Source of the DNA: Pseudomonas aeruginosa
GTDB taxonomy: Bacteria > Pseudomonadota > Gammaproteobacteria > Pseudomonadales > Pseudomonadaceae
Reading direction: 5' to 3'
NCBI RefSeq assembly: GCF_001457615.1
Contig: NZ_LN831024.1
Location: forward strand, 2,610,001-2,642,000
Length of the DNA stretch: 32,000 nt
Shown: positions 6,566-22,561 of the stretch, piece by piece
How positions within the stretch are numbered: the stretch's first letter is position 1
Layout of the letters: the number at the start of each line of letters is the position of its first letter
Program-made: the position numbers and the translations under genes
Notes under the pieces: generated by a model
The model's database searches: none
Told to the model about the DNA's origin: nothing
What the model saw: the letters and a program-made list of their open reading frames with translations, nothing else

Positions 6566-6997
6566 ATGACCATGCAACCCTTCGTCGTCGAACGTCTCGA
6601 TCACATCGTCCTGCGGGTCCGCGACCTGGAACGCAGCATCGCGTTCTATCGCGATGTCCTCGGTTGCGTGGTGGTGAAGTGGCGCGACGACCTGGAGCTG
6701 GCCCATCTGCGCCTGGGCACGTCGATGCTCGATCTGGTCGCGGTGTCCGGGGCGCTCGGCCGGGAGGGCGGTGCGGCTCCGGGTGGGGAAGGGCGCAACG
6801 TCGACCATTTCTGCGTGCGCATCGAGCCGTTCGACGAGGCCGCGCTGGTCGCCCATCTCGAGGGGTTCGGCCTGGTCCCGCAGGTTCCCGCGGAAATCCG
6901 CTTCGGCGCCGAGGGCGACGGCTGGTCGCTGTACTTCTTAGACCCGGATGGCAATCGAGTGGAGCTGAAGGGGCCGCGGGTGGACAATCCTGCCTGA
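6566..6997 (+). CDS. VOC (glyoxalase/bleomycin-resistance/ring-cleaving dioxygenase) family protein
   Basis: 143-aa ORF. LDHIVLRVRDLERSIAFYRDVLG, HFCVRI and LYFLDPDGNRVEL are typical VOC beta-alpha-beta-beta-beta modules. The SD AAGAGGTG (6557-6564) is better spaced for the second ATG at 6572, which may be the true start. Confidence 0.85.
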   Translation: MTMQPFVVERLDHIVLRVRDLERSIAFYRDVLGCVVVKWRDDLELAHLRLGTSMLDLVAVSGALGREGGAAPGGEGRNVDHFCVRIEPFDEAALVAHLEGFGLVPQVPAEIRFGAEGDGWSLYFLDPDGNRVELKGPRVDNPA

Positions 6998-7068
6998 GGG
7001 AAAGGCCCCGCGCCGGATAGGGGGGCGGCGTCGGCGAGATCGCCCGGACCAGGTAGCGATCGCCTGAA

Positions 7069-7107: not shown

Positions 7108-7920
7108 TCAGGCCAGTTCCAGCCAGATCGGGGCGTGATCGGAGGGCTTCTCCATGCCGCGCAGGTCGTAGTCGATGCCGGCGTCCTTGAAGCGCGACTG
7201 CAGCACCCGGCTGGCCAGGATCACATCGATGCGCAGGCCGCGCTTGGGGTTGTCCTCGAAGCCACGGCTGCGGTAGTCGAACCAGCTGAAGCGGTCGTTC
7301 ACCTCCGGATTCAGGGCCCGGAAGCTGTCGACCAGGCCCCAGTTCTTCAAGGTAGCCAGCCATTCGCGCTCTTCCGGCAGGAAGCTGCACTTGCCGGTCT
7401 TCAGCCAGCGCTTGCGGTTTTCCTCGCCAATGCCGATGTCGCAGTCCTCCGGCGAGATATTGATGTCGCCCATCACCACCAGGGCCTGCTCGGGCTTGAA
7501 GCTGTTCTCCAGCAGCGACTGGAGATCGGCGTAGAAGCGCTGCTTGGCCGGGAACTTGGTCGGATGCTCGCGGTTCTCGCCTTGCGGGAAGTAACCGTTC
7601 ATCACGGTGATCGGGTTGCCCTGGGCGTCGCTGAAGGTGCCCCAGATGAAGCGCCGCTGGGATTCCTCGCCGTCGCTCGGGAAGCCGCGATGCAGTTCCA
7701 GGGGCGCCTGGCGGGAGAGCAGGGCGACGCCGTAGTGGCCTTTCTGCCCGTGGTAGTGGACGTGGTAGCCGAGCGCCTCGATCTCGGCCTGGGGAAACTG
7801 GTCGTCGGCGACCTTGGTTTCCTGCAGCCCGATCACGTCGGGCTGGTGCCGCTCGATCAGCGCCGCCAACTGGTGCGGCCGGGCGCGCAGACCGTTGATA
7901 TTGAAAGAGACGATTTTCAT
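7108..7920 (-). CDS. xthA: exodeoxyribonuclease III
   Basis: Only the last 270 aa of the 601-aa ORF are coding, starting at ATG 7920. [18 protein letters not shown]...VIGLQETK...MGDINISP...[11 protein letters not shown] are the canonical ExoIII/AP-endonuclease motifs. Confidence 0.95.
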
Positions 7921-8145
7921 GGTGGGCGTCCTGGCAAAAACAGGAATGCTAGCCCAGCCGGGGGATGCCTGGCGACCCTGGAGGCGCTGTGCTAGTGTCC
8001 GCCGGGTACCCGATGGCTGTGTGGCTTGGCGCCTTGCCGGCCCTGTGGTCTGCCGCGGACGGGGATGGCCAGGCCATCCGCTCGACCAATCGCCGTGGCG
8101 AAGCGTGCGTGTCGCTGCGCCTGCGGCCGACAAGGAATGCGTTCC

Positions 8146-8778
8146 ATGCCTGATCAGGTCTCCGATGTTCGTCTGCTCGACGACGGCTATAGCCGCGAAG
8201 TCCGCTCGCTTTTCTACCACGCCTACCGCCACGAACCGACCTTCGCCTACCTGATGGATGCGCAGCGCGCCGGCTACGACCAGCGCGTGCGTGCCTGCGT
8301 CCGGGAGATGGTCGAGCGCCATCTGGGCGAAGAGTTGCCGGCCATCGGCCTGTTCATCGACGATCGGCTGGTCGCGGCGGCCCTGATCACGCCGCCGCAG
8401 CGGCGCCTGGATATCACCGAGAGCTGGAGCTGGCGCCTGCGCATGCTGTTCAGCGTCGGCCTGGCCGCGACCCGGCGCTACCTGGATTACCACCGGGCGG
8501 TGCAGGCCTGCCTGCCGGTCGGCCCCCACCACCAGTTGCCGATGCTCGGCGTGCATCCCGAGTACCAGGGCAGGCAGATCGGCGAGCAGTTGCTGGCCGC
8601 CGTGCAGCGCTGGTGCGCCGAGGACTCCGCTTCGCAGGGGCTGGTCCTGGATACCGGCAATGCGCGCTACCTGGACTTCTACCAGCGGCACGGCTACCGC
8701 GAGATCGGCGAGGTGACGCTGGGAGCGGTGCGCGAGCACGTCCTCCTGCATCCTGGCGAGACGCCGGCGGCGACCTGA
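8146..8778 (+). CDS. GNAT-like acetyltransferase family protein (hypothetical)
   Basis: ORF 8026..8778. I prefer ATG 8146 ([11 protein letters not shown]...), with AAGGA 9 nt upstream. [17 protein letters not shown] resembles GNAT motif A, followed by [10 protein letters not shown]. Confidence 0.7.
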
Positions 8779-8911
8779 GCGTTCCCCCGGACGCGCGAGA
8801 AAAGCCATGCCTGTCAGGCGCTTGGCGTCATAAAACCCGAATGTCAGGAGGTGGTCGGCGGCGTCCGCGCAAATCTGGACGCGCGCCACCCGCCTGCGTA
8901 GCATCCGCGCC

Positions 8912-10651
8912 ATGAGACTGACTCAAGGATTGTTCCGGTTCCCGCTGGCCGGGCTGCTGTGCCTGAGTACGGCCGCCTTCGCGGAGAGCCAGCTTAGCGT
9001 GCGCGTCACCCCCGCCAATGCCGCCCTGAAGGCCAATATCGAGGCCTATGTGGGTAGCCTCGGCGAGCGGGACGAGGCGGCGTTGCAACGTTTCCGCCGC
9101 AATGCCGAGGCGCAGGCGGAAAAGGCGGCCCAGGCGCTCGGCTACTTCCAGGCGCAGATCGACAGCGAGGTGAAGGACGGCAAGCCGCCGAAGCTCACGC
9201 TCAAGGTAGTGCCCGGCGAGCCCGTGCGCCTGCGCCAGGTGAATATCCAGGTGCTCGGCGAGGCCGCCAGCCTGGAGAGCTTCCGCTTGCCGTCGGGCAA
9301 GCAGCTGAAACCGGGCGCGAAGCTGAACCAGGGTGTCTACGAGGATGCCAAGCGGCTGATCCAGAACCAGGCCTCGCGCTACGGCTTCTTCCAGGGCCGC
9401 TTCAGCACCCAGCGCCTGAGCATCGATCCGCGCGCCGGCATCGCCGACATCGACCTGGTCTACGACAGCGGCCAGCGCTACACCTTCGGCAAGGTGAGCT
9501 TCGACGGCGACTCGATCATCGAGGAAGAACTGTTGCGCCGCATGGTGCCGTTCAAGGCCGGCCAACCCTATGACTCCGAACTGATCGCCGAACTCAACCA
9601 GAACCTGCAATCCAGCGGTTACTTCGAGGGCGTGCGGGTCGACGCCGCGCCGACCCAGGCGCAGGCCGACGGCGCGCGCCAGGCGATCCCGGTAGCGGTC
9701 CGGCTGGAGGCGCGCAAGCCCCGGACCATGGGCGTCGGCCTCGGTTTCTCGACCGACGTCGGGGCGCGCGCGAGGTTCAACTGGACCCGCCATTGGGTGA
9801 ATGCCGAAGGACATAGCCTGGGATTCGAGTCGGAAATCTCCGCACCACGGCAGAACGTCGGCGCCTGGTACGAGATTCCCCTCGATCCGCCGCTCACCGA
9901 CAAGCTGCGCTTCACCAGCGGCTACCAGTTCGAAGACCTGGTCGACACCGAGAGCAAGCTGCTGACCCTTGGCGGCGAATGGCACAGCAAGCGGCCCGAT
10001 GGCTGGCAGCGGGTGGTTTCGCTGAACTGGATGCGCGAGGAGTACAAGCTGGGCGACGACTCCGGGCTGAGCAGCTTCCTGATGCCGGGGATCGGCTACT
10101 CGCTGCTGGAGACCGACAACAAGGTCGACCCCAGCCATGGCTACCGCCTGCAGTTCAACGTCAAGGGGGCGAAGGAAGGCCTGCTGGCCGACGCCGACGT
10201 CCTCCATGTCGACGCCATGGCCAAGGGCCTGACCAGCTTCGCCGGCGGCCATCGCCTGCTCGGCCGCCTGCAGGTAGGCGGAATCGCCACCAACGACTAC
10301 AAGTCGATCCCGCCCTCGCTGCGCTTCTTCGCTGGCGGCGACCAGAGCGTGCGTGGCTACGACTACCGGACGCTGTCGCCGGAGAATTCCGATGGCGACA
10401 AGATCGGCGGCCGCTACATGATCGCCGGCAGCGTCGAGTATCAATATCCGCTGGCCGAGCGCTGGCGCCTGGCGACCTTCGTCGACCAGGGCAACGCCTT
10501 CAACTCGCTGGACTTCCCGTCGATCAAGACCGGGGTCGGCTTCGGCGTGCGCTGGGTCTCGCCGGTCGGCCCGTTGCGCCTCGACCTGGCCCATGCGCTC
10601 GACGACGACGGCGGTTTCCGCCTGCACTTCTCCATGGGGCCAGAACTGTGA
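8912..10651 (+). CDS. tamA: translocation and assembly module outer-membrane subunit TamA (Omp85 family)
   Basis: 579-aa ORF with a signal peptide ([12 protein letters not shown]). It has POTRA-like repeats ([10 protein letters not shown]...) and a C-terminal beta-barrel with [12 protein letters not shown] and a terminal aromatic-rich strand. Its stop overlaps the tamB start (GTGA). Confidence 0.9.
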
Positions 10652-13600
10652 AGGCGCTGAAGATCACCTTGCTGGCCATAGTCGGGCTGCTCCTCGCGCT
10701 GCTCCTGGGACTCGCTGCGCTGCTCGGCACCCAGACCGGCAGCGCCTGGCTGCTCGGCCGCGTGCCGGGCCTGCAGGTCAGCGGCTTCGAGGGTCGCCTC
10801 GGTGGCGCCTGGCAGGCACAGCGGCTGTCCTGGGCGCAGGACGGTACGCAACTGGTCGTCGAGCGGCCTGAACTGCGCTGGTCGCCGGCCTGCCTGGCGG
10901 GGCTGCGCCTGTGCCTGCAGCGGGTGGCCGCCGAACGGGTCGCGCTGGACCTGCCGCCGAGCGGCGACAGCGCCGACAGCGGGCCGATCAGCCTGCCGAC
11001 GCTGAAACTGCCGCTGAGCATCGAACTCGGCGAAGTGGCGGTCGGCAGCTTCCTGCTCGACGGCAACCAGCAGGTCGCCGAACTCAAGCTGGCGGCCCAT
11101 TGGCTGGCCGACGGCCTGCACATCGACTCGCTGACGGCGCGGGGCTTCGGCCTGGACCTGGCGCTCCAGGGGCGCTTGCAGCCGAGCGGCGACTGGCCCT
11201 TGCAGGCCGAAGCCACGCTCGGCCTGCCCGCTCCCGAAGACAAGCCGTGGAAGCTGGCCGTCCAGGTCGGCGGTGAACTGCAGAAGGCGCTGACCCTGAA
11301 AGGCCGCAGCAGCGGTTACCTGGACGGCAGCCTGGAAGGACAGTTGCAGGCGCTGGCGGAAAACCTGCCGGCACGATTGCTGATCCGCGCCGACGGTTTC
11401 AAGGGGGCGGCCGGACTACCGGACACCTTGACCCTGAATGCCATCCAGCTCGATGCCAGCGGCGATCTCAAGAGCGGTTACCTGATCCGCGGCGGCGCCA
11501 GCCTGCCGGGCGAGGGCGGGGCGGTGGCGTTGAGCCTGGACGGGCGGGTCGACGCCCAGGGCGCGGATATCCGCCAACTGCGCCTGGACGCTGGCGGCGA
11601 GCAGCGCCTGGAGCTGGTCGGACGCCTGGACTGGCGCGAAAGCCTGGCCGCCGACGCGACCCTGGACTGGAAGGATTTCCCCTGGCTGCGCCTGTATCCG
11701 CTGGCGGAGCCGCCGCCGGTGACGCTGAAGACCTTCAAGGCGGAAGTGCATTACCAGGACCAGCGCTACCTGGGCAATTTCAGCGCGGCGGCGAGCGGTC
11801 CGGCGGGCGACTTCACGCTGGCCAGCCCGGTGTCCGGCGACCTCGTCCAGCTCAACCTGCCGTCGCTGCAGCTCCGCGCCGGGCAAGGCCAGGCCGAGGG
11901 GAGGGTGACGTTGCGTTTCGACAATGGCGTGGCTTGGGATACCGCCCTGCAGCTCAGCGAACTGAACCCGGCTTACTGGGTCGCCGAGCTGCCGGGTTCA
12001 CTGGCCGGTCCCTTGCGTAGCCAGGGAAGTGTTCGCGACGAGCGGCTGGCGTTGGGCGTGGATCTCGACGTCAAGGGCCGCCTGCGCGGCCAGCCGGCGC
12101 TATTCCAGGCGCGCGCCGAAGGCGAGGGGCAGCGCTGGACGCTGGGCAACCTCGACCTGCGCCTGGGGGATAACAAGGTTCAGGGCAGCGGGGCGCTCGA
12201 CCAGCGCCTGCAAGGCCGCCTGGACATCGCCCTGAACCGTCTCGGCCAGCTTTGGCCGCAACTCTTCGGTCGCCTCGACGGACGCCTCGACCTGGCTGGC
12301 AGCCTCGCGGCGCCGCAAGGCAGGCTGAACCTCAAGGGACAGCAGATCGCCTACGCCGAGCAGCGCATCGCCGGCCTCGACCTGCAGGCGAACCTCGATG
12401 CCCGGCAGAACGGCACCCTGGCGCTGGTCGCTTCCGGCCTGCGCAGCGGCGAAACCGACCTCGGCCTGTTCAAGGCCAATGCCCGCGGCGACCAACGCCG
12501 CCAGCAACTGGAACTGGACCTGCAAGGTGCCTTGCTCAAGCTCGGCCTGGCCTTCGACGGGCAACTGGAGCGCGGCAACTGGCGCGGTCGCCTGGCGCGC
12601 GGCGAGTTGAGCAGTGGCGGCCAGGACTGGAAACTACAGCAGCCGGCGCGCCTGGAGCGGTTGGCCGACGGCAGGGTCAATTTCGGCGCACATTGCTGGG
12701 TATCCGGCGCCGCCAGCCTCTGCGGCGGCGAGCAGCGCCTGCTGCCCGAGCCGCGGCTGCGCTACACCCTGCGCGACTTCCCGCTGGACAGCCTGAAGCA
12801 ATGGTTCCCCGAGGACTTCGCCTGGCAGGGCAAGCTGAACGGCGACCTGCAACTGGACGTTCCGGCCCGCGGCCCGAGCGGCGTGGTCAGCCTGGACGCC
12901 GGCAGCGGTACGCTGCGCCTGCGCGACCAGGGCCAGTGGGTCGACGTCGGCTACGACAGCCTGCGCCTGGAGAGCCGGTTGGCGCCCAACCGCGTCGATA
13001 CCTCCCTCGACTTCCGCGGACCGAAGCTCGGCGAGTTGCGGGTGCAGGCGCAGATCGACCCGCGCCCGGCGAGCAAGCCGCTGAGCGGCGAGTTCAGCCT
13101 GGCCGGCCTCGACCTGTCGCTGGCGCGCCCGTTCGTGCCGATGGTGGAGAAACTGCAAGGCAGGCTGAACGGCAGCGGCCGGCTGTCCGGCGGCCTGCTG
13201 GCGCCGCGGGTCGACGGACGGGTGACGCTGAGCGACGGCAACATTGGCGGCGGCGAGCTGCCGACCAGCTTCGAGAACCTTTCCCTCGACGCTCGCATCG
13301 CTGGCGAAAGCCTGGAACTCGGCGGCGGCTGGCGCAGCGGCAGGTACGGCCAGGGCAGCCTGTCCGGCAACCTGAGCTGGGGCGAGGCGCTGAACGTCGC
13401 CCTGAACATCCGTGGCAACCGCCTGCCGGTGGTGGTCGATCCCTATGCGCAACTGGAGGTGGAACCGGACCTGAAGATCGGCATGGCCGGCCAGGAGCTG
13501 GCGATCTCCGGCAAGGTCCTGGTGCCGCGTGGCGACATCACCATCCGCCAGTTGCCGCCATCCACGGTCAAGGTCTCCGACGACGCGGTGATCGTCGGCT

Positions 13601-14313
13601 CCGAGCAGCCCGAGCAGCAGCCGCTGAAGATGAAGATGGACATCGATGTCGAGGTCGGCCAGGACAAGCTGGCGTTTTCCGGCTTCGGCCTCAGCGCCGA
13701 ACTGGCCGGCCACCTGCACATCGGCGACAACCTGGATACCCGCGGCGAGCTGAACCTGAACAAGGGCCGCTATCGTGCCTACGGCCAGCGCCTGACGATC
13801 CGTAGGGCGCGGCTGTTCTTCGCCGGACCGATCGACCAGCCGTACCTGGATATCGAGGCGATCCGCCGGGTCGACGACGTGGTCGCCGGCCTGCGCCTGA
13901 CCGGCAGCGCCGAGCAGCCGACCAGCGCGGTATTCTCCGAACCGGCGATGAGCCAGGAGCAGGCGTTGTCCTACCTGGTGCTGGGGCGGCCGATGAGCAC
14001 CGGCGAAGACAGCAACATGCTCGGCGAGGCGGCCCTGGCCCTGGGCCTGGCCGGTAGCGCACCGCTCACCGGGGAAATCGCCAAGCAGCTCGGCATCCAG
14101 GACTTCCAGCTGGACACCGAGGGCACCGGCAACAGCACCAGCGTGGTCGCCAGCGGGAATATCACCGACAAGCTCAGCCTGCGCTATGGTGTTGGAGTGT
14201 TCGAACCGGCAAATACCATCGCCTTGCGCTACCAGTTGACCAAACGCCTCTATCTCGAAGCGGCGAGCGGCCTGGCCAGTTCGCTGGACCTGTTCTTCAA
14301 GCGCGATTTCTGA
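10648..14313 (+). CDS. tamB: translocation and assembly module inner-membrane subunit TamB (AsmA-like, DUF490 C-terminus)
   Basis: GTG 10648 overlaps the tamA TGA (10649-10651). The N-terminal anchor is [28 protein letters not shown] long beta-rich repetitive body follows, then a DUF490-like end (GRYRAYGQRLTIRRARLFFAGPIDQPYLDIEA...LFFKRDF). This gives 1221 aa. Confidence 0.9.
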   Translation: MKALKITLLAIVGLLLALLLGLAALLGTQTGSAWLLGRVPGLQVSGFEGRLGGAWQAQRLSWAQDGTQLVVERPELRWSPACLAGLRLCLQRVAAERVALDLPPSGDSADSGPISLPTLKLPLSIELGEVAVGSFLLDGNQQVAELKLAAHWLADGLHIDSLTARGFGLDLALQGRLQPSGDWPLQAEATLGLPAPEDKPWKLAVQVGGELQKALTLKGRSSGYLDGSLEGQLQALAENLPARLLIRADGFKGAAGLPDTLTLNAIQLDASGDLKSGYLIRGGASLPGEGGAVALSLDGRVDAQGADIRQLRLDAGGEQRLELVGRLDWRESLAADATLDWKDFPWLRLYPLAEPPPVTLKTFKAEVHYQDQRYLGNFSAAASGPAGDFTLASPVSGDLVQLNLPSLQLRAGQGQAEGRVTLRFDNGVAWDTALQLSELNPAYWVAELPGSLAGPLRSQGSVRDERLALGVDLDVKGRLRGQPALFQARAEGEGQRWTLGNLDLRLGDNKVQGSGALDQRLQGRLDIALNRLGQLWPQLFGRLDGRLDLAGSLAAPQGRLNLKGQQIAYAEQRIAGLDLQANLDARQNGTLALVASGLRSGETDLGLFKANARGDQRRQQLELDLQGALLKLGLAFDGQLERGNWRGRLARGELSSGGQDWKLQQPARLERLADGRVNFGAHCWVSGAASLCGGEQRLLPEPRLRYTLRDFPLDSLKQWFPEDFAWQGKLNGDLQLDVPARGPSGVVSLDAGSGTLRLRDQGQWVDVGYDSLRLESRLAPNRVDTSLDFRGPKLGELRVQAQIDPRPASKPLSGEFSLAGLDLSLARPFVPMVEKLQGRLNGSGRLSGGLLAPRVDGRVTLSDGNIGGGELPTSFENLSLDARIAGESLELGGGWRSGRYGQGSLSGNLSWGEALNVALNIRGNRLPVVVDPYAQLEVEPDLKIGMAGQELAISGKVLVPRGDITIRQLPPSTVKVSDDAVIVGSEQPEQQPLKMKMDIDVEVGQDKLAFSGFGLSAELAGHLHIGDNLDTRGELNLNKGRYRAYGQRLTIRRARLFFAGPIDQPYLDIEAIRRVDDVVAGLRLTGSAEQPTSAVFSEPAMSQEQALSYLVLGRPMSTGEDSNMLGEAALALGLAGSAPLTGEIAKQLGIQDFQLDTEGTGNSTSVVASGNITDKLSLRYGVGVFEPANTIALRYQLTKRLYLEAASGLASSLDLFFKRDF

Positions 14314-14381
14314 CGGATGCGCTGATACGGACCATGCGTAACGCATAAAAGTGTGTCACTTTTAGCGGCGCATCGACGTCG

Positions 14382-14387
14382 TAGAAT
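14382..14387 (+). promoter_or_regulatory. possible -10 element (TAGAAT) for the lipid operon
   Basis: TAGAAT lies 61 nt upstream of ATG 14448. I found no convincing -35 (CTTTTA/TTTTAG at 16-17 bp spacing). Confidence 0.25.
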
Positions 14388-14447
14388 GGAGCGGGCGCCG
14401 ACCGCCAGGTCGGTGCCCGAAGCAACTCGGCACAAGGACTGGCTGAC

Positions 14448-15083
14448 ATGATTTCCGTCTATCAACTCAAACCGCGCTTTCAGAATCTTCTTCGTCCCGG
14501 CGTGCAGCGCCTCTACCGGCGCGGCATCACTGCCAACCAGGTGACCCTGGCGGCCTGCCTGCTGTCGCTGCTGGTCGGCGCGCTGGTCGCCGGTTTCGCC
14601 AGCCATCTCTGGCTGTTCGCCCTCGTTCCGCTGTGGATGTTCCTGCGCATGGCGCTGAACGCGGTGGACGGCATGCTCGCCCGCGAGTTCGGCCAGAAAT
14701 CCGACCTGGGCGCCTACCTCAACGAACTCACCGACGTGATCGCCGACAGCGGCCTGTACCTGCCGTTCGCCCTGTTGCCGGGAGTCAACCCGCTGTGGGT
14801 GGTGCTGGTGGTGCTGCTGGCGGTGATCAGCGAATATGCCGGCGCGCTGGGCACCATGGTCGGCGCTTCGCGCCGCTACGACGGCCCGATGGGCAAAAGC
14901 GACCGGGCGCTGTGTTTCGGCGTGATCGGCGCCGGGGTGGCCAGCGGCCTTTTGCCGCTGGCCTGGATCGACTGGCTGATGTTGCTGATCGCGGCCCTGC
15001 TGTTGCTGACCATCGGCAACCGCGTGCGCCAGGGCCTGGCCGAGCTGGCCGCGAGTCGACGGGGCAGCGACGGCCAGGCCTGA
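14448..15083 (+). CDS. CDP-alcohol phosphatidyltransferase family protein (E. coli YnbA-like), non-canonical motif
   Basis: 211-aa polytopic membrane ORF. The motif is NAVDGMLAREFGQKSDLGAYLNELTDVIAD, compared with the canonical DxxDGxxAR-x8-GxxxDxxxD. AAGGA lies 9 nt upstream of the ATG. Confidence 0.85.
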   Translation: MISVYQLKPRFQNLLRPGVQRLYRRGITANQVTLAACLLSLLVGALVAGFASHLWLFALVPLWMFLRMALNAVDGMLAREFGQKSDLGAYLNELTDVIADSGLYLPFALLPGVNPLWVVLVVLLAVISEYAGALGTMVGASRRYDGPMGKSDRALCFGVIGAGVASGLLPLAWIDWLMLLIAALLLLTIGNRVRQGLAELAASRRGSDGQA

Positions 15084-15172
15084 GAGGGAACGGGCGAACG
15101 CCATGGAGGTGGGCGCCCGCAGGAAGCAACCCCGCCGGGATCCCGGCCGGGGCAACGACATAGGGACATCAC

Positions 15173-16933
15173 ATGCGCGACGTACAGGAACTGCGTTTCA
15201 CCACCCACGACGGGGTAGAGCTCTTCTACCGCCACTGGCCGGCCAGCCGCCCGGCGCCGGACGGCACGCGCCAGGCGGTGCTGCTGTTCCACCGCGGCCA
15301 TGAGCACTCCGGGCGGATCGCCCACCTGGTCGACGAACTCGACCTGCCGGAACACGACTTCTTCGCCTGGGACGCCCGTGGCCACGGCCTCTCGCCAGGC
15401 GCCCGCGGCGACAGCCCGAGCTTTGCCACCAGCGTGCGCGACGTACAGACCTTCGTCGACCATATCCAGGCCGTCCACGGTATCGCCGAAGAGCGGATGG
15501 CGGTGGTGGCGCAGAGCGTCGGCGCGGTGCTGGTTTCCACCTGGGCCCACGACTACGCGCCGAAGGTGCGCGCACTGGTGCTGGCTTCGCCGGCGTTCCA
15601 GGTCAAGCTCTATGTGCCGTTCGCCCGCAGCGGGCTGAAACTGATGCGCCTGTGGCGCGGCAATTTCTTCGTCAACAGCTATGTCAAGGCACGCTTCCTC
15701 AGTCACGACCCGGAGCGGATCGCCTCCTACGACAGCGACCCGCTGATCGCCAAGGCGATCTCGGTGAACGTCCTGCTCGGCCTCTACGAAGCTGCCGAGC
15801 GGGTGGTAGCGGACGCACAGGCGATCCAGATTCCCACCCAACTGCTGATTTCCGGGGCCGACTTCGTCGTCCATCGTGCGCCGCAGGAGCGCTTCTTCGA
15901 GCGTCTCGGCAGCCTGCGCAAGGAAAAGCACATCCTGCCCGGCTTCTTCCACGACACCCTTGGCGAGCGCGATCGTCACCTGGCCGTCGGCCGTGCCCGG
16001 CGCTTCCTCCTCGAGGCATTCGCCACGGCACCTGAACGACCGAGCCTGCTCGATGCCGACCGCCTGGGCCATACCTGCGCCGAGGCCGAGGCGCTGGCCG
16101 CGCCGTTGCCGAAGAACTCGCCGCGCGATCTCTACTGGCGCGCCACCCGTGCCGGGCTGCGCCTGGGCAGCCTGTGGTCGGACGGGGTCAAGCTGGGCTT
16201 CGACACCGGCTTCGATTCCGGCAGCACCCTCGACTATGTCTACCGCAACCAGCCCAGCGGCAGCGGCCCGCTGGGTCGCCTGATCGACCGCAACTACCTG
16301 GACTCCATCGGCTGGCGCGGCATCCGCCAGCGCAAGCTGCACGCCGAGGAGCTGCTGCGCCTGGCCATGCAGCGGTTGCGCGAGGAGCAGCGCGAGGTGC
16401 GCATCGTCGACATCGCCGCCGGCCACGGCCGCTACATCCTCGAAGCCCTGCAAGGCGTCGAGCCGCTGCCGGAAAGCATCCTCCTGCGCGACTACAGCGA
16501 GATCAACGTGCGTGACGGCAGCGCCCTGATCGAAAGCAAGGGCCTCGCCGGCATCGCCCGCTTCGTCAAGGGCGATGCCTTCGATCGCGCCGACCTGGCG
16601 GCGCTGCAACCGAAGCCGAGCCTCGGGGTGGTTTCCGGGCTCTACGAGCTGTTCGCCGACAACCGCATGGTCGGCGACTCCCTCGCCGGCCTCGGCGAGG
16701 CGCTGGAGGAGGGCGGCTACCTGGTCTACACCGGACAGCCCTGGCACCCGCAGCTGGAACTGATCGCCCGCGCGCTGACCAGCCACCGCCAGGGCCAGGC
16801 CTGGGTGATGCGGCGCCGGACCCAGGCGGAAATGGACCAGCTGGTGGCCGCCGCCGGCTTCCGCAAGATCACCCAGCGGGTCGACCAGTGGGGCATCTTC
16901 AGCGTATCGCTGGCGCAGAAGGTCGCCCGCTGA
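15173..16933 (+). CDS. fusion protein: N-terminal alpha/beta hydrolase (lysophospholipase/monoacylglycerol-lipase type) plus C-terminal class I SAM-dependent methyltransferase (YnbC-like)
   Basis: 586 aa. The hydrolase part has LLFHRGHEHSGR (oxyanion-hole type), a nucleophile elbow AQSVG, and GFFHDTL (His). The methyltransferase part has VRIVDIAAGHGRY (motif I), LLRDYS (post-I acidic residue) and VVSGLYELF. Confidence 0.8.
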   Translation: MRDVQELRFTTHDGVELFYRHWPASRPAPDGTRQAVLLFHRGHEHSGRIAHLVDELDLPEHDFFAWDARGHGLSPGARGDSPSFATSVRDVQTFVDHIQAVHGIAEERMAVVAQSVGAVLVSTWAHDYAPKVRALVLASPAFQVKLYVPFARSGLKLMRLWRGNFFVNSYVKARFLSHDPERIASYDSDPLIAKAISVNVLLGLYEAAERVVADAQAIQIPTQLLISGADFVVHRAPQERFFERLGSLRKEKHILPGFFHDTLGERDRHLAVGRARRFLLEAFATAPERPSLLDADRLGHTCAEAEALAAPLPKNSPRDLYWRATRAGLRLGSLWSDGVKLGFDTGFDSGSTLDYVYRNQPSGSGPLGRLIDRNYLDSIGWRGIRQRKLHAEELLRLAMQRLREEQREVRIVDIAAGHGRYILEALQGVEPLPESILLRDYSEINVRDGSALIESKGLAGIARFVKGDAFDRADLAALQPKPSLGVVSGLYELFADNRMVGDSLAGLGEALEEGGYLVYTGQPWHPQLELIARALTSHRQGQAWVMRRRTQAEMDQLVAAAGFRKITQRVDQWGIFSVSLAQKVAR

Positions 16934-18282
16934 TGGCGCCGCGCGAGCCGGGGGTACTGAAGCGGGCGGTGCTCTGGCTGCTGTTCCTCGGCCCGTTCTT
17001 CTTCGCCAGCTATGGCCTGGCCAACTGGTTGACCAGCCAGCGCGGCGACGTCGGCAGCCTGGTCTTCGACTGGGAACGCGGGATGCCGCTGTGGCCCTGG
17101 ACCATCCTGCCGTACTGGTCGATCGACCTGCTCTACGGCCTGTCGCTGTTGTTGCCGCGGGACAAGCGCGAGCTGGACACCCACTGCCTGCGCCTGCTCA
17201 GCACCCAGGTGCTGTCGGTGACCTGCTTCCTGCTGTTCCCCCTGCGCTTCACCTTCGAACGGCCGGAACTGGGCGGCGTGTTCGGCTGGCTGTTCGACGT
17301 GCTGATGGGGTTCGACAAACCGTACAACCAGGCACCGTCGCTGCACATCGCCCTGCTGGTAGTGCTCTGGGTCTGCTACGCGCGCTACGCCAGCGGCGCC
17401 TGGCGCTGGCTGCTGCATGGCTGGTTCGCGCTGATCGGGCTGTCGGTGCTGACCACCTGGCAGCACCATTTCATCGACGTGCCCACCGGCGCGCTGGCCG
17501 GTTGGCTGTGCGTCTGGCTGTGGCCGCAGGCGCAGCCCGCGCCGTTCGCCCGCGCCAGTCTGAGCCGCGACCGGCAACGGCGGCGGCTGGCCGCTCGCTA
17601 CGGCCTCGGCGCGCTGGCCTGCGCCGCCGTCGCCTTTGCCGTCGGCGGTGCGGCGTTGTGGCTGTGCTGGCCGGCGCTGGCGCTGGCGCTGGTGGCGCTG
17701 AACTACCTGCTGTTCGGCGCCGCCGGCTTCCAGAAGGGCAGCACTGGCCGCCTGAGCGCCGCCGCGCGCTGGCTGCTGGCGCCATATCTGCTTGCCGCGC
17801 GGATCAACGCCTGGCTCTGGACCCGTCGCCGGCCGCAGCCGGACGAGGTGCTGCCGGGCCTCTGGTTGGGGCGCCTGCCGTCGTCCGCGGAACTGGCCGA
17901 CGGCCGCTTCCGCGCATTGCTCGACGCTACCGCCGAACTTTCCTGCGAGCCGCAGGGGCTGGCCTATCGCAGCCTGCCGTTGCTCGACCTGGTCGCGCCG
18001 GACGTCGAGGACTGCCGGCGCGCCGCGGTGCTGATCGACGAACTGCTGGCGCAAGGGCCGCTGCTGGTGGCCTGTGCCCTGGGCTATTCGCGCAGCGCCA
18101 CGCTGGTCGCCGCCTGGCTGCTGCTCAGCGGCCGCGCGGCGGACGTCGAGTCGGCCGTGGCCGTGTTACGTCGGGCGCGACCGCAAGTGCTGCTGGGCGA
18201 GGCCCAGCGGCGGACCCTCGCGGCGCTGAGCGGGAGCGTGCCGGAGCCATCGGCGGAACTGGGCGAGGTGCGCCATGCCTGA
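16933..18282 (+). CDS. fusion membrane protein: PAP2-superfamily domain plus C-terminal dual-specificity (CX5R) phosphatase domain (YnbD-like)
   Basis: ATG 16933 overlaps the upstream TGA (TGATG). The PAP2-type motifs are PSLH (17335-17346) and QHHFIDVPTG (17461-17490), within a polytopic N-terminal half. The P-loop VACALGYSRS has Cys at 18073-18075 and Arg at 18091-18093. Confidence 0.8.
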   Translation: MAPREPGVLKRAVLWLLFLGPFFFASYGLANWLTSQRGDVGSLVFDWERGMPLWPWTILPYWSIDLLYGLSLLLPRDKRELDTHCLRLLSTQVLSVTCFLLFPLRFTFERPELGGVFGWLFDVLMGFDKPYNQAPSLHIALLVVLWVCYARYASGAWRWLLHGWFALIGLSVLTTWQHHFIDVPTGALAGWLCVWLWPQAQPAPFARASLSRDRQRRRLAARYGLGALACAAVAFAVGGAALWLCWPALALALVALNYLLFGAAGFQKGSTGRLSAAARWLLAPYLLAARINAWLWTRRRPQPDEVLPGLWLGRLPSSAELADGRFRALLDATAELSCEPQGLAYRSLPLLDLVAPDVEDCRRAAVLIDELLAQGPLLVACALGYSRSATLVAAWLLLSGRAADVESAVAVLRRARPQVLLGEAQRRTLAALSGSVPEPSAELGEVRHA

Positions 18283-18727
18283 GCAAACCCTGGCCCTGGT
18301 GGCGGCCCTGCTGCGCCGTGGCCGCGAGCTTGACCGGCTGTCCGCCGCACTGACCCTGCTGGCCATCGGGCTGGGCCTGTACCAGGCCGTGCAGGGCATC
18401 GGCTGGCGCTATTTCGCTGCGGCGATGCTGGCGATCGCCATGCTCGGCCTGTGGCAGAAGTACTGGGCGCTGCGAGTGGCCCTGGACGCCGAACTGTTCG
18501 AACGTTTCAGCCGCGTCGGCGACAGGCTGGAAGCGCAGACCCAAGACCTGGACCGGGCCCTGGCCGATCTCGGCCTGGCCCGAGCGGACGCCGCAGGGCG
18601 CACCTGGAACCAGCGCAGCCGCGGCGCCCTGCGCCTGCTACGCTGGCAGGCGCTGGCCTGTGGCGCCCAGTTCCTGCTGGCCTTGTCGTGCCTGTTGTCG
18701 ATCCCTCTATTCAACGCTCAAACCTGA
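18275..18727 (+). CDS. small membrane protein, unknown function (150 aa)
   Basis: ATG 18275 overlaps the upstream gene by 8 nt. It has three hydrophobic segments (LTLLAIGLGLY, FAAAMLAIAMLGLW, AQFLLALSCLLSIPLF) around a charged helical stretch. Codon bias is consistent with coding. Confidence 0.65.
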   Translation: MPEQTLALVAALLRRGRELDRLSAALTLLAIGLGLYQAVQGIGWRYFAAAMLAIAMLGLWQKYWALRVALDAELFERFSRVGDRLEAQTQDLDRALADLGLARADAAGRTWNQRSRGALRLLRWQALACGAQFLLALSCLLSIPLFNAQT

Positions 18728-18738
18728 AGAGTCTTCCC

Positions 18739-19368
18739 ATGCTCGAATCAGTCGTCGCCTATGGCATCATCGCCGGCGCCCGCGCCATCACCGGCTTGCG
18801 CAGCCTCTGGCTGGGCACCACGCCGATCCCCAAGCAACGCATCTATTACGCCAACCACAGCAGCCATGGCGACTTCGTCCTGCTCTGGGCCTCGCTGCCG
18901 CCGGAGGTGCGGCGGCGTACCCGGCCGGTGGCGGGCGCCGACTACTGGAACAAGGCCGGCCTGCGCAGCTACGTGATCAACAAGGTGTTCAACGGCGTGC
19001 TGGTCGACCGCCAGCGCAGCGAGGCCAATGCCAATCCGCTCGAACCCCTCGACCGCGCCCTGGACGGCGGCGATTCGCTGATCATCTTCCCCGAGGGCAC
19101 CCGCAACCTGGACGACGAGGTCAAGCTGTTGCCATTCAAGAGCGGTATCTACCACCTGTCCCTGGCCCACCCGGACGTCGAGCTGGTGCCGGTCTGGCTG
19201 GCCAACCTCAACCGGGTCATGCCCAAGGGCCGCATGCTGCCGTTGCCGCTGCTCTGCACCCTGAGCTTCGGCAAGCCGCTGGTCGCCACGGCGGAAGAAG
19301 GCAAGGAGGCGTTCCTCGAACGAGCGCGCATGGCCCTGCTGGACCTGGCGCCGGAAGAGGAGGCCTGA
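18739..19368 (+). CDS. PlsC-type (lyso)phospholipid acyltransferase
   Basis: ORF 18451..19368, trimmed to ATG 18739 (MLESVVAYGI...), 11 nt after the previous stop. It carries the H(X)4D block NHSSHGD and the FPEGTR block. Confidence 0.85.
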   Translation: MLESVVAYGIIAGARAITGLRSLWLGTTPIPKQRIYYANHSSHGDFVLLWASLPPEVRRRTRPVAGADYWNKAGLRSYVINKVFNGVLVDRQRSEANANPLEPLDRALDGGDSLIIFPEGTRNLDDEVKLLPFKSGIYHLSLAHPDVELVPVWLANLNRVMPKGRMLPLPLLCTLSFGKPLVATAEEGKEAFLERARMALLDLAPEEEA

Positions 19369-19369
19369 G

Positions 19370-20305
19370 ATGAACGAACAGACCTGGATGCTCTTCGGCG
19401 GGATCGGCGCGCTGCTGCTGCTCGCCTCGCTGGTCGGCTTCGTCCTCAAGTGGCGCGCCGGTCCCGGCCCGAACGCGGTGATCGACAACCTGAACGCACG
19501 GATCAACGCCTGGTGGGCGATGGTCCTGGTGATCGGTTTCGCCTTCTGGCTTGGCCAGGCGGCGGTGATCCTGCTGTTCTATGGCGTGTCGTTCTACGCC
19601 CTGCGCGAGTTCATCACCCTCACCCCGACCCGGCGCAGCGACTACCCGGCGCTGGTGGCGGCGTTCTACTTCGTGCTGCCGATGCAGTACCTGCTGATCT
19701 ACATCGACTGGTACAGCATGTTCTCGATCTTCATCCCGGTGTACGTGTTCCTGCTGTTGCCGATCCTCGCCTCGCTGGGCGGCGACACCAAGCACTTCCT
19801 CGAACGCGCCTCGAAAGTGCAGTGGGGCCTGATGCTGGCGGTGTTCTGTATCTCCTTCGTGCCGGCGCTGCTGACCCTCGACATCCCCGGCTTCGAGGGG
19901 CGCAACCTGCTGCTGATCGCCTACCTGGTGATCGTCGTGCAGCTCTCCGACGTGATGCAGTACATCTGCGGCAAGCTGTTCGGCAAGCGCAAGATCGCTC
20001 CCAACCTGTCGCCGTCGAAGACCGTCGAAGGCTTCGTCGGCGGCATCGCCCTGGCCACCGCCATCGGCGCCTCGCTGTGGTGGATCACCCCGTTCAACCT
20101 CTGGCAGGCGGCGCTGATCGCGCTGCTGATCAACCTGCTGGGCTTCTTCGGCGGCCTGGTGATGTCGGCGATCAAGCGCGACCGTGGGGTCAAGGACTGG
20201 GGGCACATGATCGAAGGCCACGGTGGCATGCTCGACCGCCTGGACTCGGTGTGCTTCGCCGCGCCGATCTTCTTCCACGTGGTGCGCTACTGGTGGACGC
20301 CCTGA
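19370..20305 (+). CDS. phosphatidate cytidylyltransferase (CDP-diglyceride synthase) paralogue, YnbB-like
   Basis: 311-aa polytopic ORF starting 1 nt after the acyltransferase stop. It carries the CdsA signature SAIKRDRGVKDWGHMIEGHGGMLDRLDS and SPSKTVEG. Confidence 0.9.
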   Translation: MNEQTWMLFGGIGALLLLASLVGFVLKWRAGPGPNAVIDNLNARINAWWAMVLVIGFAFWLGQAAVILLFYGVSFYALREFITLTPTRRSDYPALVAAFYFVLPMQYLLIYIDWYSMFSIFIPVYVFLLLPILASLGGDTKHFLERASKVQWGLMLAVFCISFVPALLTLDIPGFEGRNLLLIAYLVIVVQLSDVMQYICGKLFGKRKIAPNLSPSKTVEGFVGGIALATAIGASLWWITPFNLWQAALIALLINLLGFFGGLVMSAIKRDRGVKDWGHMIEGHGGMLDRLDSVCFAAPIFFHVVRYWWTP

Positions 20306-20329
20306 GGTTCGCCTGGCGCCGAGGGGAGC

Positions 20330-20367
20330 GGGGCGGTTGCCGATGGCGGCCGCCCCCTCGTCGTTTT
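20330..20367 (+). terminator. probable rho-independent terminator of the lipid operon
   Basis: GGGGCGG (20330-20336) pairs with CCGCCCC (20350-20356), with an inner GCC/GGC pairing. CTCGTCGTTTT follows (T run 20364-20367). Confidence 0.55.
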
Positions 20368-20410
20368 CCCGCCGTGTAGGCAGCCAGGAAATTGCGAGCG
20401 ATAGAGACCC

Positions 20411-20491
20411 GTAGGGCGGATACCACCACAGGCGGTATCCGCCGAAACCCCGGATAAGCGGCGGATAACCGCAAGCGGTGATTCGCCCTAC
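20411..20491. repeat. REP-like intergenic palindromic element
   Basis: Outer inverted ends are GTAGGGCG (20411-20418) and CGCCCTAC (20484-20491). An inner 10-bp hairpin pairs GGCGGATACC with GGTATCCGCC (20415-20443). Further CGGATAA motifs occur at 20451-20457 and 20462-20468. It lies between convergent genes. Confidence 0.6.
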
Positions 20492-20535
20492 AACCAGGCT
20501 CCGGCATACGGGGACGTGACCGCAGCTTCACTGTC

Positions 20536-21531
20536 TCAGAGATTGACCAGGCGCATGCCTTCCTCGCTATAGCGACTGCCGGCGACCGCCTCGGCGGGGA
20601 AGATCGCATCCAGCTCGGCCAGTTCCGCCGCGCTCAGGCGCAATTCCGTCGCGGCGACGTTCTCCTCCAGGTAGCGCCGCTGCTTGGTGCCGGGAATCGG
20701 GATCAGGTCATCGCCCTGCGCCAGCACCCAGGCCAGCGCCAGTTGCGAGGGTTTCACGCCCTTGGCCGCGGCCAGTTCGCCGACCTTGTCCACCAGCTTC
20801 AGGTTCTTCGCGAAGTTCTCGCCCTGGAAGCGCGGGCTGAAACGACGGTAGTCGTCGGCGGCGAAGTCTTCCGGGCGCTTCAGGGTGCCGGTAAGGAAAC
20901 CTCGGCCCAGCGGGCTGTAGGGGACGAAGGCGATGCCCAGGCGACGGCAGGCGGCGAGCACCCCGGTGTCCTCCGGATCGCGAGTCCACAGCGAGTACTC
21001 GCTCTGCAACGCGCTGATCGGGTGCACCCGGTGGGCACGCTCGAGGGTTTCCGCCGAGGCTTCGCTGAGACCGATGTGGCGGATCTTGCCGGCCTTCACC
21101 AGGTCGGCGAGGGCGCCGACGCTGTCCTCGATGGGTACCTGCGGGTCCATGCGGTGCTGATAGTACAGGTCCAGGCGGTCGGTACCGAGGCGCTTCAGGC
21201 TGCCTTCGATGGCGCGGCGGATGTACGCCGGGCTGCCGTCGACGCCGCGCGCCCGGGGATTGGCAGGGTCGCGGACGATGCCGAACTTGCTGGCCAGGAA
21301 CACCTGCTCGCGTTTGCCGCGCAGGGCCTCGCCGAGCAGTTCCTCGTTACTGTGCGGGCCGTACATGTCGGCGGTATCGAAGAAGTTCAGCCCGAGTTCC
21401 ACGGCGCGATGCAGGGTGGCGATGGCCTCCTGGCGGTCGCCGCCGGTGGTGTAGAAGTCGGTCATGCCCATGCAGCCGAGGCCGATGGCGGAGACGGATG
21501 GGCCGTTGTGGCCGAGTTGACGGGTTTTCAT
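20536..21531 (-). CDS. aldo-keto reductase (NADPH-dependent oxidoreductase)
   Basis: 331 aa. [35 protein letters not shown] and [16 protein letters not shown] are typical AKR blocks. Confidence 0.9.
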
Positions 21532-21649: not shown

Positions 21650-22561
21650 ATGGATCGTTTCCAGGCCATGCAGGCCTTCACCCGCATCGTCGAGCTGGGC
21701 GCCTTCGGCAAGGCCGCGGACAGCCTGGAGCTGCCGCGCGCCAGCGTGACCCAGGCGATCCAGCAACTGGAGGCGCACCTTGGCGTGCAGTTGCTGCAGC
21801 GCACCACCCGCCAGGTCAGCCTGACCCTCGACGGGCAGGCCTACTACGAGCGTTGCGTGCGCCTGCTGGCGGACCTGGAGGAGGCGGAAAGCTGCTTTCC
21901 ACGCGTCCTGAACAACCCGCGCGGGCGCTTGCGGGTCGACCTGCCGGGCGCACTGGGGCGGATGCGGGTGATTCCGTTCCTGCCGGAGTTCTGCGAGCGC
22001 TACCCGGAACTGGAGCTGCAGTTGAGCAGCAACGATCGCCTGGTCGACCTGCTGCGCGAGGGCGCGGACTGCGTGCTGCGGGTCGGCGAGCTGCACGATT
22101 CCAGCCTGGTCGGCCGGCACCTGGCCGACCTGCCGCAGGTGACCTGCGCCAGCGCCGCCTACCTGGAGCGTCATGGCCATCCGCGGCAGCTCGCCGAGCT
22201 CGGCGGGCACCTCGCGGTGAACTACCAGTCGCCTTCCAGCGGGCGTACCTTCGACTTCGAGTTCAGCGTCGACGGGCGTCTGCGCACGTTGCCGATGCGC
22301 AGCCGGGTCAGCGTCAACAACGCCGATGCCTACGTCGCCGCCTGCCGGGCCGGGCTCGGGCTGATCCAGGCGCCGCACTATCACGTCGCCGCCGGTCTGG
22401 CCGACGGTAGCCTCCGACAAGTGCTCGGAGAATGGTTGCCGCCACCGCTGCCGCTGCATGCCGTGTATCCCTCGCAGCGCCAGTTGTCGCCGCGGGTGAG
22501 GGTGTTCGTCGACTGGCTGGTGGAACTGTTCGGTCGCCAGGCGGCCGGCGAGACGCAATGA
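21650..22561 (+). CDS. LysR-family transcriptional regulator
   Basis: 303 aa. MDRFQAMQAFTRIVELGAFGKAADSLELPRASVTQAIQQLEAHLG is the HTH, followed by a LysR effector domain. It is divergent from the AKR gene. Confidence 0.9.
   Translation: MDRFQAMQAFTRIVELGAFGKAADSLELPRASVTQAIQQLEAHLGVQLLQRTTRQVSLTLDGQAYYERCVRLLADLEEAESCFPRVLNNPRGRLRVDLPGALGRMRVIPFLPEFCERYPELELQLSSNDRLVDLLREGADCVLRVGELHDSSLVGRHLADLPQVTCASAAYLERHGHPRQLAELGGHLAVNYQSPSSGRTFDFEFSVDGRLRTLPMRSRVSVNNADAYVAACRAGLGLIQAPHYHVAAGLADGSLRQVLGEWLPPPLPLHAVYPSQRQLSPRVRVFVDWLVELFGRQAAGETQ

Follow-up and report, generated by a model that had tools for sequence, protein, structure and literature searches.

In a 32,000-nucleotide stretch of the Pseudomonas aeruginosa genome (contig NZ_LN831024.1, positions 2,610,001 to 2,642,000; hereafter the window, with positions counted from its first letter), the genes of the translocation and assembly module, tamA (PA2543) and tamB (PA2542), lie directly upstream of six lipid-metabolism genes occupying 14448-20305 on the same (+) strand (Table 1). 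This layout had been proposed in a sequence-only reading of the window, and sequence and domain searches confirm it, including a gap of 134 nt between the tamB stop, which ends at 14313, and the next ATG at 14448; it is the largest junction in the block. The six genes had been taken for an orphan operon, but they are PA2541-PA2536, published as arc1A-F (antagonism resistance cluster 1; Ting et al., eLife 2022, PMC8926400) and already partly characterised. The assignment to PA2543, PA2542 and PA2541-PA2536 is based on identities to P. aeruginosa proteins, the length of TamB and a match of the published PA2541 deletion primer to window positions 14437-14457. The locus has the same six genes as published arc1A-F and shows no sequence difference from it, so that the components of the cluster and their arrangement are already known.

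Expression of arc1A-F is controlled by Gac/Rsm and is very low in the basal state, and the cluster protects P. aeruginosa against type VI secretion attack by Burkholderia thailandensis (Ting et al., 2022). Five of the six products resemble phospholipid-synthesis enzymes, and Arc1F protein is nearly absent before Gac/Rsm activation; tamA and tamB are unmentioned in that paper, in which the arc1 lipid product was not identified (Ting et al., 2022). In a later CRISPR interference (CRISPRi) screen arc1A came up again and, like arc3A and aas, was tied to survival of the lipase effectors TseL and Tle1; aas was also a possible hit in two transposon sequencing (Tn-seq) screens (Ting et al., 2022). Re-acylation by Aas/LplT, the Arc3 pathway and arc1 all protect P. 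aeruginosa membranes against type VI phospholipases; Aas re-acylates lyso-phosphatidylethanolamine directly, whereas Arc1 encodes a multi-enzyme route of the cytidine diphosphate (CDP)-diacylglycerol type. A mutant in PA14_31700 (arc1A) is virulence-defective in a fly pricking assay with normal growth in vitro, and overexpression of PA2537 (arc1E) leads to growth restriction. We found no paper joining tamB with ynb or arc1 genes.

Table 1. Positions and assignments of the tamAB-arc1 block, its internal spacer and its flanking genes in the window
Feature	Position	Strand	Description	Basis
tamA (PA2543)	8912-10651	+	Omp85-family outer-membrane subunit of the translocation and assembly module	Domains
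tamB (PA2542)	10648-14313	+	AsmA-like, inner-membrane-anchored, periplasm-spanning protein, 1221 aa	Pfam and NCBIfam TamB
tamB-arc1A spacer	14314-14447	+	arc1A leader region, 134 nt	Sequence, fold, terminator scan
Inverted repeat	14347-14363	+	Perfect 7-bp repeat AAAAGTG-TGT-CACTTTT (AAAAGTGTGTCACTTTT)	Sequence; pairs in predicted fold
TAGAAT	14382-14387	+	-10-like hexamer with a poor -35 partner	Sequence
G+C-rich hairpin	14392-14419	+	12-bp hairpin in the arc1A leader, followed by AAGCAACUCGG and not by a run of U	Minimum-free-energy and centroid folds
ACAAGGA	14432-14438	+	RsmA/CsrA-type A(N)GGA motif over the arc1A Shine-Dalgarno	10 nt before the ATG
arc1A (PA2541)	14448-15083	+	YnbA orthologue, CDP-alcohol phosphatidyltransferase-family membrane protein	CDP-OH_P_transf
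arc1B (PA2540)	15173-16933	+	YnbC orthologue, bifunctional alpha/beta hydrolase and class I S-adenosylmethionine (SAM) methyltransferase	
arc1C (PA2539)	16933-18282	+	YnbD orthologue, fusion of a membrane PAP2-like part and a dual-specificity phosphatase	
arc1D (PA2538)	18275-18727	+	Small membrane protein, hydrophobic, 150 aa	Hydrophobic segments
arc1E (PA2537)	18739-19368	+	PlsC-type lysophospholipid acyltransferase, 209 aa	Acyltransferase domain, HX4D motif
arc1F (PA2536)	19370-20305	+	YnbB orthologue, CdsA-like phosphatidate cytidylyltransferase	CTP_transf_1, E = 7.5e-76
xthA-like gene (PA2545)	7108-7920	-	Exonuclease III	Exo_endo_phos domain; listed as PA2545 in the PA14 table
GNAT gene (PA2544)	8065-8778	+	GNAT-family acetyltransferase	Open reading frame (ORF) with third-position G+C content (GC3) of 0.84; coordinates after the PA14 table
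Aldo/keto reductase gene (PA2535)	20536-21531	-	Aldo/keto reductase, convergent	Aldo_ket_red domain

TamA exceeds the Pfam cut-offs for POTRA_TamA_1, POTRA and Omp85, and its best NCBIfam match by far is the TamA model NF047950, although the score of 564.7 bits is below the cut-off of 625; PA2543 is also called tamA in the P. aeruginosa literature. The gene overlaps tamB by 4 nt. TamB matches PF04357 (E = 2.6e-61) and NF047952 (832.7 bits against a cut-off of 825), has a single N-terminal hydrophobic segment that would serve as its anchor, is 99% identical to P. aeruginosa TamB and has the length published for PA2542. The same overlapping two-gene arrangement with the same domains is found in Escherichia coli (b4220-b4221).

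Four of the Arc1 proteins give full-length BLASTP matches (at least 90% of length) to the products of E. coli ynbABCD, at identities of 50% (Arc1A/YnbA), 56% (Arc1B/YnbC), 40% (Arc1C/YnbD) and 39% (Arc1F/YnbB), and with the genes co-oriented this identifies the cluster as a ynb-type module. The E. coli order is A-B-C-D, whereas the arc1 order in the ynb naming is A-C-D-x-acyltransferase-B, and E. coli lacks both the small membrane protein gene and the acyltransferase gene that are present in arc1. For the E. coli genes, the one functional result that we came across is that overproduced YnbB raises the glycolipid MPIase and that YnbB cannot replace CdsA. Arc1A scores 33.5 bits for CDP-OH_P_transf (cut-off 22), but departs from the canonical four-aspartate signature of PgsA and phosphatidylinositol-phosphate synthase, D-x2-D-G-x2-A-R-x8-G-x3-D-x3-D, in that Asn replaces the first and third Asp (N-x2-D-G-x2-A-R-x8-G-x3-N-x3-D, residues 71-96). 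This N/N variant is present in 85 of 87 family members examined, including the E. coli YnbA (L001 9622-10227). Since two canonical aspartates are replaced, standard phosphatidyl transfer may not hold for the YnbA/Arc1A family, and the conservation of a non-canonical catalytic motif calls for caution when its chemistry is assumed in annotation.

The remaining products are assigned mainly on domain content. Arc1B contains Hydrolase_4 and Methyltransf_20 domains, the latter activity marked by the SAM motif VDIAAGHG, and is 100% identical to a 1059-sequence protein cluster; its next named matches, 99% identical, are from P. aeruginosa. Arc1C matches DSPc (E = 1.2e-8; 35.3 bits, cut-off 33.5) and has a CX5R motif, together with weak PAP2 and PAP2_3 matches that fall under their cut-offs. 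Its likely start is the ATG at 16933, which overlaps the arc1B stop by 1 nt (TGATG), with a GTG at 16888 as the alternative; orthologues are 446-449 aa long. Arc1D has no family match in Pfam or NCBIfam, but homologues occupy the same position in most Pseudomonas loci and in Motilimonas, Zoogloea ramigera, Reyranella and Labrys, and a hypothetical gene of 145-150 aa is annotated there in the Shinella and Burkholderia modules. The start of arc1E was chosen on the homologue length of 209 aa. From arc1B to arc1F the junctions are tight, being in order a 1-nt overlap, an 8-nt overlap, an 11-nt gap and a 1-nt gap.

Distribution of the arc1 module and the genes behind tamB

The genomic context of the module was surveyed with an 11-sequence Arc1B alignment against one genome per species. 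Of at least 560 relatives the best 80 were kept, together with as much as 10 kb of flanking sequence in either direction. P. aeruginosa is not itself among the 80 loci, and its close relatives were examined apart from them through exact-protein look-ups. A 38-sequence alignment of distant Arc1B relatives was dropped as the query as it was too diverse for a pattern-based scan. The loci represent ~55 Pseudomonas species together with Stutzerimonas, Aquipseudomonas, Zoogloea, Variovorax, Xenophilus, Azoarcus, Corticibacter, Reyranella, Labrys, Motilimonas, one member of the Lysobacteraceae and Acetobacteraceae. Neither tamA nor tamB was detected by tblastn within 10 kb of the module in any of these 80 best loci, of which 75 have at least 1 kb and 70 at least 4 kb of upstream sequence; the window, used as positive control, gave the expected result. 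Nor does tamAB accompany the plasmid copies of the module, which were found on a megaplasmid in Shinella, on a small replicon in Burkholderia and on an IncF plasmid in E. coli. In E. coli K-12 the two gene sets are far apart, as stated in the sequence-only reading, with tamAB at 4.442-4.448 Mb (tamA-tamB-ytfP, 4.4424-4.4482 Mb) and ynbABCD at 1.478-1.482 Mb (1.4776-1.4822 Mb, between ydbD and azoR). The adjacency, put forward as possibly informative, is absent from the 80 best loci, from E. coli and from the plasmids, and is confined to part of the P. aeruginosa group.

Gene order within the module is far better kept than its surroundings, with A-B-C-E-F retained in 68 of the 80 loci and no flank gene family common to more than 14. 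The flanks are clade-specific: the fluorescens and syringae groups have a P-type ATPase gene as well as three SPFH/Band 7 genes, Variovorax has ruvB and the putida group an aldehyde dehydrogenase gene, while in the alcaligenes/mendocina group the module directly follows the housekeeping plsC, between glyS and gyrB. The ynb/arc1 module is a portable, self-contained unit found in many genomic contexts. No AsmA-like or lipid-transport gene recurs beside it in other lineages among the large flanking ORFs checked, which encode an alpha-2-macroglobulin, a GGDEF-EAL protein, MetH, glutamate dehydrogenase, a UvrD-type helicase, a glucanotransferase and an SMC protein. The type of linkage envisaged in the sequence-only reading does exist in E. 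coli as ydbH-ynbE-ydbL, in which an AsmA-like gene is followed by small partner genes on the same strand. According to their annotation, however, the ydbH partners (a lipoprotein included) are transporter components, whereas arc1 encodes lipid-synthesis enzymes, and no conserved tamB-arc1 pairing comparable to ydbH-ynbE-ydbL was found in the surveyed loci.

Viewed from the tamB side, the order xthA (-), GNAT, tamA, tamB is constant across the Pseudomonas loci examined and it is the gene after tamB that varies. A 900-aa P-type cation ATPase gene follows tamB in Pseudomonas sp. QL9, P. nitroreducens and CP138377, and a convergent fimbrial usher cluster follows it in P. protegens; in E. coli the next gene is ytfP, as against a lipid-synthesis operon in part of the P. 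aeruginosa group only. The tamB-arc1 adjacency was seen in P. aeruginosa, P. panipatensis, P. citronellolis and one further relative (L093/L094), all four belonging to the P. aeruginosa group, a pattern without recurrence in distant lineages among the loci surveyed and consistent with a single ancestral event. By itself such an adjacency is statistically unremarkable and its weight depends on conservation; with an occurrence that does not extend beyond P. aeruginosa and a few near relations, it says little about shared function. In P. panipatensis and the L093/L094 relative the module sits exactly between tamB and the P-type ATPase gene. P. aeruginosa lacks this ATPase gene, and directly after the module come aldo/keto reductase and LysR genes whose counterparts are located at a greater distance behind tamB in P. 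nitroreducens. The latter species has the module elsewhere (L038, L044), with tamB directly followed by the ATPase gene. In trees of both Arc1B and Arc1F, the P. nitroreducens module falls in a single clade with those of P. aeruginosa, P. panipatensis, P. citronellolis and the L093/L094 relative. As P. nitroreducens belongs to this clade and has the module at a different site, it appears to have kept the module after the latter had left tamB, indicating that separation is tolerated. The simplest history, judged from gene order and these trees, would be one placement behind tamB in the ancestor of the P. aeruginosa group, retention in several descendants and relocation in P. nitroreducens. The P. 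aeruginosa spacer does not clearly resemble that of P. panipatensis, so that the two do not settle between one and two insertions.

Two candidate observations were set aside. L085, with an Arc1B 91% identical, might have passed for a second species but is a noisy, frameshifted assembly of P. aeruginosa and was left out as an independent case, and equivalence of the P. aeruginosa-group ATPase with the fluorescens-group ATPase was rejected as there was no match at E below 1e-10.

Several reduced or unusual forms of the module were encountered. The module behind tamB in the L093/L094 relative, whose TamB cluster has 74 member sequences, consists of arc1A, arc1E and arc1F only, followed by the ATPase gene (L093 9780-12005, L094 8645-10870), and is without the hydrolase-methyltransferase, the phosphatase and the small protein. 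L051-L053 (two Stutzerimonas and, in L052, a Pseudomonas metagenome-assembled genome) have arc1B with no other arc1 gene in the available flank, and P. oryzagri and Corticibacter (L026, L058) have arc1B, arc1C and arc1D only, suggesting that the module decays or serves in parts. A partial ynb/arc1-like cluster is carried by the conjugative E. coli IncF plasmid pFHI_NMBU_11_02 (L004 6818-10943), which also carries colicin M; it comprises cdsA-like, acyltransferase and ynbC-like genes with remnants of ynbA- and ynbD-like genes, and its YnbC-like protein is 59% identical to the Pseudomonas protein, compared with 56% for chromosomal YnbC. In 14 Pseudomonas species the module adjoins three divergently oriented SPFH/Band 7 (membrane microdomain) genes, for example at L018 5212-7238 and L010 7170-9122 (fluorescens/syringae-group loci among L006-L076). 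The E. coli K-12 ydbH-ynbE-ydbL genes (L097, 1443051-1446206) lie ~32 kb from ynbABCD and are not adjacent to it.

The tamB-arc1A spacer, transcription and control by RsmA

No canonical intrinsic terminator was found in the spacer, as the one weak site returned by the scan falls within the last part of tamB, and a consensus scan of the spacer gave no sigma-70 promoter. No Rfam family matches the region. The spacer is nevertheless strongly structured (z = -3.5), and contains a perfect inverted repeat 19 nt ahead of the -10-like hexamer TAGAAT. The repeat was not seen upstream of arc1A in other species and could be an operator for some regulator or a weak hairpin, while TAGAAT is a candidate weak or activator-dependent internal promoter.

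Published transcript data are available for this interval in PA14. In the transcription units tabulated by Wurtzel et al. (2012), unit 1694 comprises the eight genes PA14_31680-31760 (PA2543-PA2536) and spans 2751825-2763218 with a single start site at the tamA start; its length of 11,394 nt is exactly that of window 8912-20305. The same tables give no start site within the tamB-arc1A spacer for PA14 grown in LB at 28 or 37 C. In that study a gene was joined to the upstream one if it had no start site and expression differed by less than two-fold, and the coverage data are not strand-specific, for which reasons the map supports read-through but is no proof of it. Read-through across 14314-14447, which the sequence-only reading had put forward as a check, can thus be called provisionally positive on the published eight-gene unit and the lack of a terminator in the spacer. 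Whether the eight genes are a single operon accordingly turns on a rule-based map, a spacer in which neither terminator nor consensus promoter was found, and a -10-like hexamer that is present in it. The start site given for tamA in the PA14 table is the first base of the annotated start codon at 8912 (5' untranslated region length of 0), and the NCBIfam TamA alignment starts only at residue 15; either the start codon of tamA is perhaps wrongly placed, or its transcript may have no leader.

The RsmA/CsrA-type A(N)GGA motif ACAAGGA coincides with the arc1A Shine-Dalgarno, and the predicted fold exposes its GGA in the loop of a small hairpin, the position that RsmA sites usually have. RsmA binding itself is taken from the cited literature, in which PA2541 is counted among the targets of RsmA, its single site being at the Shine-Dalgarno (Brencic and Lory, 2009, as cited there). 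ACAAGGA, AAAGGA or GGGA occurs at the same position upstream of arc1A in many Pseudomonas species. As the GGA motif recurs regardless of the upstream gene, Gac/Rsm control belongs to the module and not to the tamB junction. On inhibition of LolCDE, arc1C (PA2539) mRNA falls three- to four-fold alongside genes of the H1 type VI secretion system (H1-T6SS), with tamA and tamB unlisted. TamB is functional in ordinary culture and becomes essential once YhdP and YdbH are removed; since it is active where Arc1F protein is nearly absent, expression of tamAB and arc1 must be uncoupled at least post-transcriptionally.

How the adjacency is best explained

We consider it probable that the arrangement reflects a lineage-specific placement of arc1, with read-through transcription and RsmA-gated translation, and not a dedicated synthesis-plus-export unit. 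Of the functional unit suggested in the sequence-only reading, co-transcription is plausible, but the dedicated unit is unsupported by the comparative evidence, and probable read-through transcription is the only positive sign of coupling between tamAB and arc1. The adjacency may be a historical placement with a possible regulatory side-effect. The region brings together two systems that most bacteria have apart. tamA-tamB is a housekeeping module, TamB being among the redundant AsmA-like phospholipid transporters, and arc1A-F is a self-contained six-gene module of the ynbABCD type plus a PlsC-like acyltransferase and a small membrane protein. In this explanation, the arc1 module would have landed in an ancestor of the P. 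aeruginosa group, in a variable region behind tamB and ahead of the gene for the P-type ATPase. Basal arc1 transcription by read-through from the tamA promoter is probable because no terminator follows tamB. RsmA bound to ACAAGGA at the arc1A ribosome-binding site would block translation, and the tight coupling from arc1B to arc1F, probably together with mRNA decay, would spread this block down the operon until danger sensing through Gac/Rsm lifts it and the Arc1 enzymes are made. What the present analysis or the cited papers show is which genes these are, where the adjacency occurs, that PA2541 is an RsmA target, that the cluster acts in defence and that the eight genes are annotated as a single unit; that arc1 mRNA comes mainly from read-through, and that the Arc1 pathway has no specific requirement for TamB, we infer.

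A putative pathway can be drawn for the enzymes once made. Arc1E would re-acylate lyso-lipids to phosphatidate, which Arc1F would convert to CDP-diacylglycerol; Arc1A would then transfer it to an alcohol phosphate, leaving the head-group phosphate attached, and Arc1C would remove that phosphate, with Arc1B hydrolysing or methylating some intermediate. Such a pathway would support survival of the membrane under attack by type VI lipase effectors.

Genome-wide screens offer a comparison of phenotypes. The Tn-seq hits tabulated by Ting et al. (2022; PMC8926400) include PA2541, PA2540 and PA2536, whereas PA2542 (tamB) and PA2543 (tamA) are absent from the hit tables, and the text of the CRISPRi paper, in which an arc1 gene was a hit, does not mention tamA or tamB. 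A phenotype shared by tamB and arc1, as would be expected of partners, therefore finds no support in two genome-wide screens that hit arc1 genes without reporting tamA or tamB.

A number of points weigh against placement as the explanation. TamB is one of three redundant AsmA-like proteins, with YhdP and YdbH, for outer-membrane lipid homeostasis in P. aeruginosa, and as this redundancy may mask a phenotype its absence from hit lists is weak evidence. The adjacency persists across species whose TamB is only ~66% identical, which selection rather than inertia could explain, and published support for co-transcription is a classic sign of functional linkage. The Arc1B and Arc1F trees are neighbour-joining trees that carry no support values, the true frequency of the adjacency is only roughly known from the best 80 of at least 560 relatives, and the order of the Arc1 steps and the lipid product are deduced from domain content alone.

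The principal alternative, which we regard as rather unlikely, is that arc1A-F is an independent unit that shares only its address with tamAB, being transcribed from a spacer promoter at TAGAAT that is possibly controlled through AAAAGTGTGTCACTTTT, and that the single PA14 unit is an artefact of the joining rule. The hexamer and the perfect palindrome would suit such a promoter. Moreover, as the genes upstream of the module differ or are divergent in all other lineages, it must have its own promoter there, and the response of arc1C mRNA to LolCDE inhibition moves with the Gac/Rsm regulon, with tamA and tamB not listed as changing. The two-fold expression rule and coverage that is not strand-specific leave room for a mis-joined unit in the PA14 map. 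Set against this are the lack of a listed spacer start site under either PA14 condition, the lack of a sigma-70 promoter by consensus scan with a -35 that is poor, and the lack of a terminator behind tamB to halt read-through from upstream.

We find it quite improbable that the eight genes are one functional unit, in which Arc1 would make or repair a specialised glycerophospholipid at the inner membrane and TamB docked on TamA would carry it to the outer membrane, with co-transcription as the consequence. The shared strand, the 134-nt gap, the missing terminator and the eight-gene PA14 unit all accord with this, as does the fact that four or more members of the P. aeruginosa group have retained the adjacency; TamB has also been implicated in phospholipid transport in P. 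aeruginosa, and Arc1 protects against lipases that attack from the periplasm. Yet tamAB is missing from the vicinity of the module in the best 80 of at least 560 module-bearing relatives, in E. coli and on plasmids, P. nitroreducens retained the module apart from tamB, and the module occurs in at least five unrelated genomic contexts. The screens hit arc1 in both cases with tamA and tamB absent from the Tn-seq hits and unmentioned in the CRISPRi paper, and Arc1 proteins are barely made under conditions in which TamB is already functional. About equally improbable is a variant in which the P. aeruginosa lineage captured arc1 behind tamB because the two now cooperate, its RsmA-silenced message coming constitutively from the tamA promoter and, on danger sensing, a phosphatidylglycerol-like lipid being preferentially delivered by TamB to the outer membrane to repair type VI lipase damage. 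If true, synthesis and transport would be joined in one unit peculiar to this lineage, through which the cargo specificity of TamB could be approached, and cooperation between TamB and Arc1 would offer a rare genetic handle on the cargo of AsmA-like proteins and on envelope repair after type VI lipase attack. For annotation, the lesson is that adjacency in one reference genome should not be taken as functional partnership.

Flanking genes

Upstream of tamA, the 270-aa orthologue of the xthA-like gene keeps its position at all Pseudomonas tamAB loci examined, providing a conserved upstream context. A 601-aa ORF at 7108-8913 (-) was rejected as an over-extension of this gene and an artefact of the high G+C content (~67% in the window), as the Exo_endo_phos domain covers only the C-terminal part; the C-terminal 270 aa alone constitute the xthA-like gene, with the remainder of the span occupied by the GNAT gene on the + strand. 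The GNAT gene is immediately 5' of tamA genus-wide, and its orthologues match Acetyltransf_1/7 in L086 and L089-L095. Downstream, PA2535 is the boundary of the co-oriented block and, as noted, has an orthologue further downstream of tamB in P. nitroreducens. Two LysR-family regulator genes, at 5557-6462 (-) and 21650-22561 (+), bracket the tamAB-arc1 block and are mutually 38% identical. G+C and GC3 do not separate tamAB from the arc1 genes. From xthA to arc1F (7108-20305) the window is collinear with the published PA14 coordinates, from which it differs by 42 nt in the arc1F-PA2535 spacer (20306-20535) and by 4 nt near PA2546 (6566-7001).

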